A DNA stretch of 63,868 bases, counting the filler, from an uncultured Planctomycetales bacterium (GTDB lineage: Bacteria > Omnitrophota > Gorgyraeia > Gygaellales > Profunditerraquicolaceae), in the NCBI GenBank assembly GCA_964487475.1. It is 4 parts of 4 records of this genome, joined end to end, with 100 filler letters (N's around TTAATTAATTAA, not from the genome) between each part and the next. Parts side by side here need not be neighbours in the genome. Positions count along the whole stretch, not along the records: positions 1 to 22,089 come from CAZAPM010000019.1; 3 more parts are not named here. The stretch is one strand, 5' to 3'. A program made the position numbers and the translations under genes. The notes under the pieces were generated by a model. That model ran no database searches and had not been told where the DNA came from. It saw nothing but the letters and a program-made list of their open reading frames with translations. Position 1 is the stretch's first letter. The number at the start of each line of letters is the position of its first letter. This document shows positions 3,795 through 41,512 of this stretch, in pieces.

Positions 3795-3854
3795 CACCCT
3801 TGCTCTTCTTGCCCTCATCCCGAGGCACACGGAATATATCCGCTTGCTTCATAT

Positions 3855-4008
3855 GCACGGGCAGGTCTTCTGGCTCTCCCCTCACGGCAAATGCCTTCCC
3901 GCCCCAAACCACAGGCAGTGGCGCTTCATCTTGCCGGGTGTCCGTTTCCGGACGGGATTACAGCGGCGGGACCGCGGCTGATTCGCACAGCCTTCCCTTC
4001 ACCCATGC
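3855..4008 (-). ncRNA. Cobalamin riboswitch
   Basis: Minus strand AGGGAA, CCCGCCGCTGTAA, GCCACTG, GGGAAGG and B12 box AGCCAGAAGACCTGCC; upstream of btuFCD-like genes. Confidence 0.93.
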
Positions 4009-4025
4009 TTCAACTTGTTATTGTC

Positions 4026-11345: not shown

Positions 11346-12159
11346 TATCCTCCCGGGAAGCGATCAGTCCCCGGATTATCCCCTCGTCCACTGCCAGGGC
11401 ATCGCGCATCACCACCGTCTCCAGCGCGTCGTGGCAGAGCATGGCGATCTTGCGGGGGTACCCCTGGGTATACTGATAGATCAGGCGGATCGCTCCGTCG
11501 GTAAATAGCTGCTGCTGCCAGTTCAGCCCCGCCTGATGCAGCCTGAACTCGATAAGCTCCTTGGTCTCGTGCTCGTCCAGGGGATTGATAGTGTACTTAA
11601 GCGCCACCCTGTCGATGAAATTACGGATGCGCTTGATGCGGGGAAGCAGCTCCACCTGCGCCATGATCACCAGCTGCAGGAGCTTGAACTCATTGGTCTC
11701 GAAATTAAGCAGCGTCCTTAAGACCTCCAGGTTCTCCTGGGAGATCTTCTGCGCTTCGTCGATAAGCAGCACGATGGTCTTGCCCTCCTCCACCCCTTTC
11801 TGGAAAAGGTAACGCTCCAGCGCTTCCTTGAAATCCAGGGTGGACTTGAACTCCGGAGTGATCCCGAACATCCTGACCAGGGTCTGAAGGAACTGGTACT
11901 CGGACTTGAATCCGGGATCGAGGATCATATGGAAGATGAAATTGTTCTCGTCTTTGAAGGCCTGCAGGAGGGTTCGGGAAAGAGTGGTCTTCCCGGTGCC
12001 GACGTCGCCCAGCACCAGACAAAGGCCCCGGCGCAGGCGAAGCGCGATCTCCAGCCTCTTGAGCGCGGTGTTATGGCTGGAGGAAAGATAGAAGAATTGC
12101 GGATCGGGACTGGTGGAGAACGGCTCTTTATCCAGGCCCAATGATTTATAATAGCTCAT
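11320..12159 (-). CDS. ExeA/GspA-family AAA ATPase
   Basis: PFSTSPDP.F, GDVGTGKTT, LIDEAQ, GYPR.I..LC. Confidence 0.9.
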   Translation of the reverse strand: MSYYKSLGLDKEPFSTSPDPQFFYLSSSHNTALKRLEIALRLRRGLCLVLGDVGTGKTTLSRTLLQAFKDENNFIFHMILDPGFKSEYQFLQTLVRMFGITPEFKSTLDFKEALERYLFQKGVEEGKTIVLLIDEAQKISQENLEVLRTLLNFETNEFKLLQLVIMAQVELLPRIKRIRNFIDRVALKYTINPLDEHETKELIEFRLHQAGLNWQQQLFTDGAIRLIYQYTQGYPRKIAMLCHDALETVVMRDALAVDEGIIRGLIASREDNDERYLIA

Positions 12160-12401
12160 CAGGCCGCCTCCGTACGCAATCCCGCAAGCATCGTGCTGAT
12201 CTCTTTGATCGATCTGCCCTCTTTGCGCAGCGCATGGATACGCTTGAGATGCTCCACCGAAGAGTCATCGAAGTAACGGAAACGCGTCTCCGGGCTCCTG
12301 CTCACCTCATTGATCAAGCCTATCTTAAGATAATATTTGATGGTGTATACAGAATACCCGGTGATGCGCGCTAAATCCTTTATTAGATAAACGTTATGGA
12401 T
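12159..12401 (-). CDS. MerR-type HTH regulator, 80 aa, probable non-canonical ATC start (not in ORF track)
   Basis: My translation: IHNVYLIKDLARITGYSVYTIKYYLKIGLINEVSRSPETRFRYFDDSSVEHLKRIHALRKEGRSIKEI...; AAGGAGG 5 nt upstream; TGA overlaps the ExeA ATG. Confidence 0.85.
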   Translation of the reverse strand: MHNVYLIKDLARITGYSVYTIKYYLKIGLINEVSRSPETRFRYFDDSSVEHLKRIHALRKEGRSIKEISTMLAGLRTEAA

Positions 12402-12411
12402 ATTAGCCTCC

Positions 12412-12456
12412 TTTACTCTCTACATAGAGAGTAAACCAAAATAACCCTTCTGTCAA
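12412..12456 (-). promoter_or_regulatory. Promoter with overlapping 24-bp dyad (candidate operator)
   Basis: TTGACA(12456-12451)-N17-TACTCT(12433-12428); perfect inverted repeat TTTACTCTCTA-CA-TAGAGAGTAAA at 12412-12435. Confidence 0.78.
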
Positions 12457-12474: not shown

Positions 12475-12503
12475 TTGAATATTATGCGCACAAATGGTAT
12501 ACT
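12475..12503 (+). promoter_or_regulatory. Divergent sigma70-type promoter for the riboswitch transcript
   Basis: TTGAAT-N17-TATACT with extended TGn. Confidence 0.7.
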
Positions 12504-12540
12504 CTTTAATGTTCCTTGTACTTTTGACAATCCGGTCAAT

Positions 12541-12629
12541 TACCTACTGAAACGGCTAACCTGCAGCAATGCAGGGGCGCAAAGCGACAGGCCCCGTTGA
12601 CCCGGGGTGGCTGCGCTGCCAAAGGGGTG
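12541..12629 (+). ncRNA. c-di-GMP-I (GEMM) riboswitch
   Basis: GGCTAA-CCTGCA-GCAA-TGCAGG-GGCGCAAAGC core with GNRA loop, P3 GGCCCCG..GGGGTGGC, 3' GCTGCC. Confidence 0.85.
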
Positions 12630-12633
12630 TGCC

Positions 12634-12738
12634 ATGAAAAAGATGATCCGCAAATTTACCCGCAAAGCAAGAAAACATCATAAGAAATTAGGATGGCTGG
12701 CGGCGTTCCGGGTATTCGGAATGACGGTCGGATTTTAG
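12634..12738 (+). CDS. 34-aa cationic/hydrophobic small protein (not in ORF track)
   Basis: MKKMIRKFTRKARKHHKKLGWLAAFRVFGMTVGF; AAAGGGG SD; only evident ORF between riboswitch and terminator. Confidence 0.65.
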   Translation: MKKMIRKFTRKARKHHKKLGWLAAFRVFGMTVGF

Positions 12739-12780
12739 AACTGCGGAATGTGTGCGTCTCCATCCTGAGAGGTGGAGCGT

Positions 12781-12815
12781 GGCCCCGAGTGTCTCACTCG
12801 GGGCCTGTTGTTTTT
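12781..12815 (+). terminator. Intrinsic terminator
   Basis: GGCCCCGAGTG-TCT-CACTCGGGGCC followed by TGTTGTTTTT. Confidence 0.85.
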
Positions 12816-13332
12816 ATGGGGATCCCTGCGCCACGGTAAAAAGCCCCTCCAGCACTCCGGCATTGCCCGGCCTGGCGGTAAGCTGCACCCTTCTCACACG
12901 TAGCAGCGCTAAGGAATTATCCAACGCGTAGAGGAAACGGAAATACCCCTCCATCGTGCCTTCAGCCTTGAAATCCACGGCCATGACCTTCTCCCCCTGC
13001 TGCCCTTGCGGCCTCACATCCACCACCTTGACCCCGGAAACCTGCGCGATCCTCTCGATCTCTGAAAGCATGGTCACCAGAGTCTGCGCCTGCAAAGACC
13101 CCAGGTCGAGTCCGGCGTACAGCGATTGATACTTTTTACTGATCTCGTCCTTGTTCGCCAGGAGCCCCTTCTGGCGCGCCAGCCGGGTACGTAACACTTT
13201 GATCTCCCCGGAAAGCGCGTCATTCCTCCGGGCCACGGGAACGATCAGGAAATTGAAAAGGATGCTGAAAAAGATCACCCCGACGGTTAACGCCAGAATG
13301 ACCTTTTCCCTGCGCTTGAGGATCGGCGCCAT
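12814..13332 (-). CDS. GspM/PilO-like protein
   Basis: L..REK.IL + TM + coiled coil + ferredoxin-like fold pattern; cluster position. Confidence 0.75.
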   Translation of the reverse strand: MAPILKRREKVILALTVGVIFFSILFNFLIVPVARRNDALSGEIKVLRTRLARQKGLLANKDEISKKYQSLYAGLDLGSLQAQTLVTMLSEIERIAQVSGVKVVDVRPQGQQGEKVMAVDFKAEGTMEGYFRFLYALDNSLALLRVRRVQLTARPGNAGVLEGLFTVAQGSP

Positions 13333-18904: not shown

Positions 18905-20611
18905 CTAATCCTCGGGCAATTCTTCCTGCTGGGTTACGCGGATCACTTCCGTCAGGGTGGTCAGGCCCTCCCGCACCTTGCGCAGCCCGTCCTGGCGCAG
19001 GGTACGCATACCCTGGGCGATCGCGTGCTGCTTGATCTGCTGGCTGCTGGCCCGCTCCAGGACCATGGCGCGGACCGGCTCGGTGAGGCGCAGTATCTCG
19101 TAGATCGCGGTCCGGCCGCGGTAGCCGGTGAAACGGCATTTTTCGCACCCCCGCCCCTCGTACATATCAAAGACCTCCCCGTCCTTCTCGATCAAATTGA
19201 CCTGGGCGAGCATCTCGGGGGAAGGCTTGCGTTTTTCCTTGCAGTAAGGGCAGATCAGGCGCACCAGCCTCTGGGCGATCAGGCACTCCAGGGACGAGGA
19301 GACCAGGAACGGTTCGATCCCCATGTCCAGCAGCCGGGTCACGGCTCCCGGCGCGTCATTGGTGTGCAAAGTCGAGAACACCAGGTGCCCGGTCAGGGCG
19401 GAGCGGATGGCGATCTCCGCGGTCTCATAATCGCGCACCTCCCCGACCATCATCACGTCCGGGTCATGGCGCAGCATATGCCGCAAGGCGGTGGCGAAGG
19501 TGAAGCCGATCTGGGGGATGACCTGTACCTGGTTGACCCCGCGCAGCTGGTATTCCACCGGGTCTTCGATCGTGATGATCTTGACCGCGCTGGAGTTGAT
19601 CTTGGCCAGCGCCGCGTAAAGAGTGGTGGATTTCCCCGATCCCGTCGGCCCGGTGACGAAAATGATCCCATGCGGCTGCTTGATGGCGGACTCGATGATC
19701 TGCAGGTCTTCCTTCGCCAGCCCCAGCTTCTCCAGCTCGAGGAAGAAACGGGTGCTTAGGATCCTGATGTGCACCGCTTCGCCGAAGGCGGTCGGCATGA
19801 TGGAAACGCGCAGGTCGAGCTCCTGGGTATCGACCTTGATCTTGATCCTTCCGTCCTGGGGCAGCCTCCGCTCCGCGATGTTAAGCTGCGCCATGATCTT
19901 GATGCGGGAGACGATCGCCGGATGGAAGAGCTTGATGGTATCGGGGATATTGATATCGTAGAGCACTCCGTCGATGCGGAAACGCGTGCGCAATTCGTCC
20001 TGGAACGGTTCCAGATGGATGTCGCTGGCCCGGTCCTTGACCGCTTCCGAGAGTATCTGGTTGACGAAGGTGATGATCGAAGCGTCCTCCGCCAGGGTGG
20101 AGACATCCTGCGCGGCTCCGGCAGACACCGGCACGGGCGAGGAATGATGCTGCTGGGCGACCATACGCTCGAGGGTCTCCGCGCCCACCCCGTAATATGC
20201 GCGCATGGCCTCCAGGATATCCTGTTCCGAGGCGAACACGGGCTTGATCTCCTGGTTTAAGACCAGCCGGATATCGTCGAGCTGGCGCACGTCCGTGGGA
20301 TCGATGACCGCCAGGACCAGGTAGCCGTCGGAGAACTCCAGGGGGATGATCTTATAATGGCTGGCGAACTTGGCCGGGACCTGCGCGATGACCGCAGGGT
20401 CGATCTGCCGGGACTTGATCTTTTCGAACGGCACGCCGAGCCGCTTGGAGAGCGCGCCGTAGAGCGCGTCAGGCTGGGCCAGGCCGAGTTTGATGATGGT
20501 GGTGCCGAGGAATTCCCCGGACTTTTTCTGCTCGCGGGAAGCGGCCTCCAGGTGGGCCGCCGTGAGGATACCTTCTTCCGTAAGTATTTTAGCGATAAGG
20601 GTATAGTCCAT
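18905..20611 (-). CDS. gspE: GspE/PilB assembly ATPase
   Basis: ASDIH.EP, ERRLPQDG, GPTGSGKSTT, EDPVE, GEVRD, tetracysteine motif. Confidence 0.93.
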   Translation of the reverse strand: MDYTLIAKILTEEGILTAAHLEAASREQKKSGEFLGTTIIKLGLAQPDALYGALSKRLGVPFEKIKSRQIDPAVIAQVPAKFASHYKIIPLEFSDGYLVLAVIDPTDVRQLDDIRLVLNQEIKPVFASEQDILEAMRAYYGVGAETLERMVAQQHHSSPVPVSAGAAQDVSTLAEDASIITFVNQILSEAVKDRASDIHLEPFQDELRTRFRIDGVLYDINIPDTIKLFHPAIVSRIKIMAQLNIAERRLPQDGRIKIKVDTQELDLRVSIMPTAFGEAVHIRILSTRFFLELEKLGLAKEDLQIIESAIKQPHGIIFVTGPTGSGKSTTLYAALAKINSSAVKIITIEDPVEYQLRGVNQVQVIPQIGFTFATALRHMLRHDPDVMMVGEVRDYETAEIAIRSALTGHLVFSTLHTNDAPGAVTRLLDMGIEPFLVSSSLECLIAQRLVRLICPYCKEKRKPSPEMLAQVNLIEKDGEVFDMYEGRGCEKCRFTGYRGRTAIYEILRLTEPVRAMVLERASSQQIKQHAIAQGMRTLRQDGLRKVREGLTTLTEVIRVTQQEELPED

Positions 20612-41236: not shown

Positions 41237-41512
41237 GCTCCCCCTCTAGGACTCGAACCTAGGACCTGGTGGTTACAAGTAACCCGGAATTACGTCCGGA
41301 CTTGGACTATATCTTTGTCTTGAGCCTTTCGGCTTTTAGACAGCGGGTGCATAGTCTCTGAACCTTCCCCAAACAGTTCTTGGGGCTCGGCTGCTGATTA
41401 CCCTCGCTTGCGCGTTCGGGCTTCCAGCAATTCTCCCACAGTTTCAACTATGGTTTCCCATAGAAGCTGCCGATTTGACAGCCACTCGCTCTACCGACTG
41501 AGCTAAGGGGGA
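41237..41512 (-). tRNA. tRNA-Asn(GTT), intron-split; exons 41512-41478 and 41275-41237; CCA cut by contig end
   Basis: Acceptor TCCCCCT/AGGGGGA, D arm GCTC..GAGC, anticodon loop CT GT^T AA, T arm CTAGG-TTCGAGT-CCTAG, discriminator G. Confidence 0.93.
41276..41477 (-). ncRNA. Group I self-splicing intron, 202 nt, no ORF
   Basis: P AATTGCTGGAAG, Q AATCAGCAG, R GTTCAGAGACTA, S AAGATATAGTCC; P1 with U.G at the 5' splice site; terminal G. Confidence 0.93.

Follow-up and report, generated by a model that had tools for sequence, protein, structure and literature searches.

Organization of the locus

The window, by which we mean the whole analysed stretch of 63,868 nt, carries in its first contig (C19, positions 1-22089, followed by a run of N) a minus-strand cluster of type II secretion/type IV pilus (T2SS/T4P)-like genes, in which a small unit lies on the opposite strand. 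A reading of the DNA made from the sequence alone (hereafter, the sequence-only reading) had described this unit as consisting of a promoter, a c-di-GMP-I aptamer, a 34-codon ORF and a terminator, and all four parts were found in their places on the + strand. The unit begins with a sigma-70-type promoter with an extended -10 element (12475..12503, +; TTGAAT-17-TATACT with TG), detected by a promoter scan. It continues with the leader box TTGACAAT (12522..12531, +), a c-di-GMP-I aptamer (Rfam RF01051) with a weak P1 and a GCAA tetraloop (12543..12626, +), a Shine-Dalgarno (SD) sequence overlapping the 3' strand of P1 (12623..12629, +) and the gene of a 34-aa basic microprotein (12634..12738, +). 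Downstream, a second short hairpin can be read from the sequence (12758..12777, +), followed by an intrinsic terminator found by scanning (12781..12815, +), with an 11-bp hairpin at 12781-12805 and an imperfect U tail. The terminator segment folds at -23.6 kcal/mol and adjoins the gspM stop codon; with this terminator in place, the unit is monocistronic.

The promoter and terminator scans alone perform at the chance level (1 promoter against 1.3 expected and 3 terminators against 2.4 expected). The extended -10 promoter proposed earlier gains weight from its recurrence, the same layout being repeated in 59 of 65 leaders examined, window copy included, with TG in 50. The TTGACAAT box lies 18-20 nt past the -10 element in 46 of the 65 leaders, some of which carry similar units ahead of it with 9-nt spacing. 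Two of its 5 copies in the genome are those of the window leader and of a sister leader on contig C10, and the box is a possible operator of an 88-aa ribbon-helix-helix (RHH)-like protein encoded behind the latter.

To the left of the unit lie genes for a MerR-type HTH protein, an ExeA-like ATPase, a secretin, a receiver protein and an HD-GYP protein. The divergent MerR-type gene (12159..12401, -; 80 aa; Pfam MerR_1, E 3.4e-17) is outside the unit and heads the exeA-like, gspC-like and secretin genes; the convergent GspM/PilO-like gene on the other side (12814..13332, -), likewise outside the unit, matches Pfam T2SSM below the cut-off (E 0.001). An antisense or transcription-interference effect of the unit on gspM-merR read-through was considered and rejected: merR has its own conserved promoter region, and the unit is reversed in relatives. 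No minus-strand terminator was found in the gspM-merR gap.

Several observations concern the surroundings only. The MerR-type gene has no ATG, GTG or TTG start; an ATC lies 5 nt behind GGAGG, and ATC, ATT or ATA occupies this place in 14 of 20 homologous loci, the other 6 having ATG at or beside it, which looks like a conserved non-canonical start. A palindrome, CTCTCTA-NN-TAGAGAG (12416-12431), overlaps the -10 element of the merR promoter, occurs once in the genome and is present in 16 of 20 syntenic loci; it is probably an autoregulatory operator of the effector-less MerR-type protein. The GspE/PilB ATPase (18905-20611, -) has a Pfam MshEN match, and its N-terminal c-di-GMP motifs look degenerate beside the consensus. 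A cobalamin riboswitch (3843-4021, -) precedes a B12 transport and salvage operon, and a group I intron match (41283-41489, -; 72.2 bits) lies beyond contig C19.

Aptamer class and ligand pocket

The class assigned from sequence alone was borne out by the Rfam covariance model RF01051, which matches 12544-12623 (+) over model positions 1-87 with 63.7 bits against a cut-off of 35 (E 3.9e-10). The G at the equivalent of Vc2 G20, taken earlier to favour c-di-GMP over cGAMP, was also confirmed: the pocket nucleotides are G20 = G12554, A47 = 12581 and C92 = C12619, c-di-GMP being read by G20 and C92, and A20 being the mark of cGAMP switches (PMC6140456). G20 is G and C92 is C in all 56 aptamers that could be placed by script, so that a cGAMP riboswitch (GEMM-Ib), which needs A at position 20, was rejected.

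All P2/P3 pairs are standard in the window copy. Across 13 aptamers, 11 of 24 pairs show two-sided changes and 93% of cells are paired, the lower helix of P1 reaching only 74%; P2 with its GNRA loop and P3 with its receptor bulge are supported by covariation. The window aptamer thus resembles Vc2 of Vibrio cholerae (RF01051) in its full-length model match, G20, C92 and P2/P3 compensatory changes, and differs from c-di-GMP-I riboswitches in having one nucleotide fewer in the junction before G20 and a C at the position that precedes it. By its sequence, it is an ordinary RF01051 member, of the c-di-GMP type according to G20. In nine other loci (L058, L063, L064, L066, L076, L101, L108, L110 and L121), the aptamer is split by inserted hairpins and gives two partial model matches.

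The 1.9-Mb genome contains seven c-di-GMP-I aptamers. Besides an RHH-like operon and a 7,700-aa ORF, the other targets are Flp-type pilins and two ORFs whose starts resemble signal peptides; the weakest aptamer match precedes a 402-aa ORF, and on contig C5 (57811-95974) three aptamers stand ahead of Flp-type pilins, a 718-aa ORF and the 7,700-aa ORF. GGDEF matches number 7 in this genome, of which five contain GGEEF or GGDDF, and an intact HD-GYP motif is present as well. Six of the 7 GGDEF matches have Asp at the site that separates c-di-GMP from cGAMP synthases.

The microprotein family

An important question is whether the short ORF is a gene. As described in the sequence-only reading, the 34-aa product is basic and devoid of acidic residues (7 K, 4 R, 2 H, no D/E). 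Such basic composition is common, being found in 58 of the 941 SD-led 28-45-codon ATG ORFs of the genome, and is not sufficient in itself; the ORF is counted as a gene because it is conserved. When 234 genomes of the order were searched at the protein level, complete ORFs of the same type turned up at 26 of the 29 best loci besides the window, the false ones among these 29 weak matches being L043, L051 and L053. A peptide profile reached 77 of the 234 genomes at E<=0.01, and the family is present in 72 of them with best E <= 1.1e-6, a count that leaves out five genomes with best E > 1e-3. Its distribution is patchy: 39 of 114 genomes that are at least 90% complete are positive, one of the 39 weakly. 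Positive genomes numbered 26 of 401 in a phylum sample (22 others in the same taxonomic family, 3 outside it) and 12 of 401 in a class sample, including four genomes in two other families; in all these counts, related genomes are non-independent samples.

Among 1.84 billion representative proteins, 47 matches were found, most of them 34-45 aa long, and in all 47 the peptide either makes up a short ORF completely or stands at its C-terminal end. The longer matches with a C-terminal peptide look like upstream start calls. Nine library matches were looked up, of which one was titled 'hypothetical protein' and one bore an unrelated label. The family is conserved and mostly missed by gene callers.

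Over 34 disjoint pairs drawn from 68 distinct peptides, dN/dS is 0.18, with pN<pS in 34 of 34 pairs, and it is 0.20 over the 16 least saturated pairs; an SD is present in 66 of the 68 distinct peptide genes. The window copy is the sole copy of the peptide in its genome and differs from its closest relative with pN 0.23 and pS 0.62. Nine loci have a second, tandem paralogue (L059, at 780-884, L060, L069, L072, L077, L092, L101, L112 and L125).

Conservation was not found where it had been expected, in syntenic loci: all nine gspM-merR gaps of the first batch of relatives are without the unit, and no riboswitch was found in the 19 loci of this first synteny test. The reading that followed from that test, a one-off insertion, was overturned by the peptide search, in which homologues were found elsewhere.

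The window copy has no family match in Pfam or NCBIfam, and 49 family members gave only scattered weak matches in Pfam, NCBIfam and PHROGs. The ESM Atlas yielded no usable match, the phage collection one chance match (E=3), and the PDB, searched by sequence, a composition-driven best match to a eukaryotic ribosomal protein (E 0.036). Mimicry of a motif of a larger protein of the same genome was not found. No description of the family was found in the literature searched, which lies largely outside subscription journals; supplementary genome-wide tables of riboswitch targets may list the loci. Comparative sequence analysis thus points to an unnamed family of 34-41 aa under purifying selection. 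The microprotein was said at the outset to be undescribed and tied to a second messenger, and it appears so: conserved in 72 of 234 genomes, with a dN/dS of about 0.2, and preceded by an aptamer in 71 of 77 loci.

Linkage to the riboswitch and direction of the switch

The latter set comprises 76 loci from 73 genomes, with 5-kb flanks, and the window. Aptamers were located with a sequence model built from 13 aptamers of the set, which match it by construction. In the 71 loci the aptamer precedes the peptide gene on the same strand; of the six misses, two have only 21 nt of upstream sequence. The distance between aptamer and peptide is <=881 nt in 67 of the 69 that were placed. Rfam, as an independent check, recognized an aptamer at 21 of the 26 true loci and at none of the 3 false ones.

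In 54 of 56 placed leaders, a terminator follows right behind the aptamer. When the aptamer was fixed in folding, 14 of 54 leaders shifted towards the terminator and 0 away from it, and in 29 of 54 the complementarity between the 5' junction and the terminator exceeds that of shuffled sequences (p<=0.05), as for an antiterminator. The terminator is favoured at equilibrium even without ligand in 36 of 54 homologues, so OFF logic requires co-transcriptional kinetics; kinetic control is described for the OFF switch Cd1 (PMC9262584). The data support a terminator-based, OFF-type logic in the homologues.

The window copy departs from this arrangement. With 13 nt between C93 and the ATG, its leader is the shortest of the 69 placed, the next shortest having 56 nt; a second peptide locus, L081, also has a leader lacking a terminator, with 56 nt to the ATG. 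Since there is no terminator between the aptamer and the ATG of the window copy, the SD lies in the P1 strand. The overlap of the SD with the 3' strand of P1, noted earlier, is therefore real, but only about 3 bp cover the SD. In the folding models, opening the SD costs 3.2-5.9 kcal/mol in the free and 5.4-6.6 kcal/mol in the bound state, a rise of 0.7-2.6 on ligand, and opening the SD-AUG region costs 5.1-7.6 and 5.5-8.2 kcal/mol, respectively, a rise of only 0.3-1.1. An alternative helix hides the ribosome-binding site in the free state too, and the site is predicted to stay largely closed whether or not ligand is bound. Of the translational OFF switch suggested by the sequence-only reading, the direction agrees with the weak OFF bias in folding and with the OFF leaning of the homologues, whereas a site largely closed in both states counts against it; modelling leaves a translational OFF switch plausible, though weakly supported.

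The relatives suggest a history for this copy. The window leader aligns best to the C10 sister leader, with 107 of 138 positions identical, and lacks 8 nt of the linker as well as the entire terminator. In the tree, the window peptide groups with that of L066 as its sister (98% bootstrap, 36 codons), and the L066 operon occupies the same gspM-merR gap in the opposite orientation. The simplest history would be an in-place inversion with loss of the terminator and of the 88-aa gene. The window copy is a terminator-less, monocistronic variant and, together with the evidence for the peptide family, constitutes the new part of the finding.

This shortened leader, with the small predicted switch and the F->W and P->T substitutions at strongly conserved sites of the peptide, would also suit a copy that has lost its switch and is constitutive, poorly translated or decaying, or whose RNA acts as a c-di-GMP sponge, for which merRNA of Bdellovibrio offers a precedent (PMC3627812). 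Such a loss is unlikely: the SD, its spacing, the promoter and all pocket nucleotides are intact, the genome carries the peptide just once, and its pN and pS against the closest relative, given above, speak against decay. As for a sponge, merRNA was proposed to be one because it has no conserved ORF, as described in PMC3627812, and the window unit has one.

Genomic context of the homologues

The neighbourhood of the peptide gene varies among loci, and the ORF may be first, last or alone in its operon, which argues for action in trans and not as a leader peptide. A TIGR04073-like gene is part of the peptide operon in 27 of 77 loci and the 88-aa gene in 42 (27 downstream, 15 upstream). In the window genome, the 88-aa gene (L001; C10:28511-28774) has a sister c-di-GMP-I riboswitch upstream and encodes an invariant LDKLGKDALF core. 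The 88-aa protein has no Pfam match; nearly every top structural match of its model is an RHH protein, the best at Z 4.7 with an rmsd of 1.9 over 44 residues and none at Z>=5.

The peptide might be a cofactor or anti-repressor of this usually co-transcribed protein, whose modelled fold is RHH-like. Besides the common operon in 42 of 77 loci, the RHH-like gene is present in 29 of 38 peptide-bearing near-complete genomes, and in the window genome both genes remain under sister riboswitches after the split of the operon. Nevertheless, 9 of these 38 genomes, including all 5 of genus g115, show no match to the RHH-like gene. Conversely, of the 58 of 114 near-complete genomes of the order that have it, 29 show no peptide, and of the 80 RHH-gene loci only 27 include the peptide within 2.5 kb, in one case that of the paralogue type, against 53 that do not. 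The link between the two genes is not obligate, and a cofactor or anti-repressor role is quite unlikely. An aptamer precedes nearly all of the 80 fetched loci of the 88-aa gene, which makes the RHH-like gene a broader partner of the switch than the peptide.

The link to secretion genes fares worse. The sequence-only reading had seen in the peptide either a membrane-active product or a secretion regulator, with a layout that speculatively mimics a prepilin cleavage site, and had proposed a new system that includes the MerR-type gene and HD-GYP. The window copy does lie between gspM and merR, gspM is beside the peptide in 4 other loci, one of which holds the closest relative (98% bootstrap), and an HD-GYP-like gene is found within 5 kb in 7 of 77 loci. 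Overall, however, gspM is a neighbour of the peptide in 5 of 77 loci and merR in 4; 72 are not beside gspM, and the first-batch syntenic gaps are empty, so neither the system nor a dedicated regulator was supported. In type IV prepilins (class III signal peptides), Gly at -1 and Glu at +5 are conserved, and about 20 hydrophobic residues extend past the cleavage site. The window copy resembles them in that Gly and an aromatic residue come after a basic leader, with only 15 residues left beyond that point. Across the family the likeness dissolves: Gly precedes Phe in 19 of 83 peptides, Glu is at +5 in 0 of 83, Arg stands at +6, 13-23 residues separate Phe from the end, and a transmembrane segment is missing from 85 of 85. 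Moreover, the peptide has no Pfam N_methyl match, and four true pilins nearby do. A role as prepilin mimic or as dedicated T2SS/T4P regulator is very unlikely.

Peptide anatomy and proposed mechanism

The peptide family is defined by a C-terminal motif, FLxAxRLYxGMP, in which Arg is invariant (68 of 68) and Phe (64), Pro (63), Gly (61) and Met (60 of 68) are largely kept; two strongly conserved sites, Phe and Pro, are those substituted in the window copy. Over the first 20 residues, K and R replace each other freely while the net charge stays between +8 and +12. Conservation of charge alone in this part suggests a grip on a polyanion, and conservation of individual residues in the C-terminal part suggests a specific protein partner. 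AlphaFold predicts one helix (pLDDT 74). The N-terminal 11-mer is amphipathic at p<=0.05 in 37 of 75 peptides, the C-terminal helix, hydrophobic all round, in 0 of 75, so that an amphipathic membrane-targeting helix of the MinD type finds no support for the main type. In the tandem paralogue type, the C-terminal helix is more amphipathic (median moment 0.50 vs 0.36 in the main type).

The C-terminal half was correctly described as hydrophobic in the sequence-only reading, but it is not transmembrane: the best 19-residue Kyte-Doolittle mean is 0.61, and no transmembrane segment was found in 85 peptides, none of which reaches a 19-residue mean of 1.6. Tat signal peptides are marked by RRxFL spacing and a long h-region, features that none of the 85 peptides shows, and this candidate was dropped as well.

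By analogy, we tentatively favour, at somewhat less than even confidence, a c-di-GMP-repressed, trans-acting modulator with a cationic helix at the inner face of the membrane and a docking motif. High c-di-GMP would switch the peptide off, so that it would be made at low c-di-GMP. In the relatives, we infer, the ligand would lock the 5' junction and P1, the terminator would form and transcription would stop; in the window copy, the rearrangement would have removed the terminator and turned a P1 strand into the SD, so that ligand may partly hide the SD. The cationic N-terminal helix would grip an anionic surface, which is most probably the inner membrane face, and the conserved FLxAxRLYxGMP end would dock on a partner protein. 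The peptide could thereby adjust the work of an envelope or signalling complex, in concert with the remaining targets of the riboswitches (Flp-type pilins, the 7,700-aa protein, secreted proteins and the RHH-like regulator). The inner-membrane tether was chosen because of the analogy to a C. difficile family (see below) and because the other targets of the switch are largely envelope proteins. Two points speak against a membrane reading: a +10 helix would suit nucleic acid just as well, and the amphipathicity of the C-terminal helix does not exceed chance.

The peptide could instead be a nucleic-acid binder, nucleoid-condensing or associated with the ribosome or RNA, that serves the low-c-di-GMP state of very small cells, and we regard this as possible but doubtful. 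The constant positive charge with free exchange of K and R and the single predicted helix would suit such a role. On the other hand, none of the 49 aligned sequences matches a Pfam or NCBIfam family of ribosomal or nucleoid proteins, the best PDB match, as noted, is driven by composition, and such a role would not in itself explain the conserved hydrophobic C-terminal motif. Moreover, bL34-, bL36- and bS22-like ORFs are present separately in the genome. The cell type also fits a nucleic-acid binder, Omnitrophota being described as ultra-small, with free and attached states (PMC10066038).

A further alternative is that the Arg-rich peptide binds c-di-GMP itself and deepens the low-signal state by positive feedback. 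Arg-rich peptides are able to bind c-di-GMP (PMC7382256), and RxxxR occurs in 58 of 85 peptides, a frequency that composition predicts. The Cle-derived c-di-GMP-sequestering peptide is described as having the motif DRR-x11-(R/K)RxxD (PMC7382256), which is absent here (DRR in 0 of 85, (R/K)RxxD in 4 of 85); moreover, Lys replaces Arg freely, and the window copy has no Asp. Sequestration is therefore the least probable of the readings and would be highly surprising.

The idea of a c-di-GMP-repressed modulator can be carried further, to a picture that is speculative and that we would not expect to hold in full. In it, the 34-41-aa family would be a lineage-wide Omnitrophota c-di-GMP effector, made only at low signal and docking by its invariant motif on a core machine (the attachment apparatus, a signalling enzyme or the nucleoid/ribosome), and would set the free versus the host-attached state; the window copy would represent a natural conversion of a transcriptional to a translational riboswitch through terminator loss. 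In Omnitrophota, host attachment has been linked to Tad and type 4a pili and to giant ORFs (PMC10066038). Seven aptamers stand ahead of pilins, the 7,700-aa protein and small regulators, and in the large Omnitrophota genome papers that were searched, no mention of a riboswitch or of c-di-GMP was found. The microprotein offers a testable handle on how uncultured host-dependent cells may switch lifestyle.

Comparison with known systems

In layout, the homologues share with the C. difficile OFF switch Cd1 a terminator following the aptamer (PMC6140456, PMC9262584). The window copy is unlike the Vc2/Cd1 type in having no terminator platform, its SD being a P1 strand and only 13 nt separating C93 from the ATG.

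Bdellovibrio merRNA, as described, is likewise a stand-alone c-di-GMP riboswitch transcript in a host-dependent bacterium, but it has no conserved ORF (PMC3627812), whereas the ORF of the window unit is under purifying selection.

The closest parallel is provided by the CD1980.2 family of C. difficile, riboswitch-repressed, membrane-associated 58-aa proteins that act on sporulation and for which no homologues outside C. difficile are described (PMC13724677). Like CD1980.2 and CD2309 (PMC13724677), the Omnitrophota peptides are encoded by unannotated small ORFs behind c-di-GMP-I riboswitches and appear to be repressed by the signal; both families are basic with a hydrophobic C-terminus and have paralogues in some genomes. 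The arrangement typical of CD1980.2, in which a class I c-di-GMP riboswitch immediately precedes a small ORF, is found in 71 of 77 loci. The CD1980.2 proteins, however, have 58 aa and four predicted helices, against 34-41 aa and one predicted helix here, and the Omnitrophota family is mostly single copy and belongs to another phylum, which sets it apart from CD1980.2 as the latter is described. As far as that description reaches, the Omnitrophota peptide works like the CD1980.2 family but is not a member of it. If borne out, this would be a second case of a riboswitch with a small protein as its output, in a phylum other than that of C. difficile. Thus, the unit combines a known sensor with an unnamed effector family and, in the window copy, an unusual expression platform.
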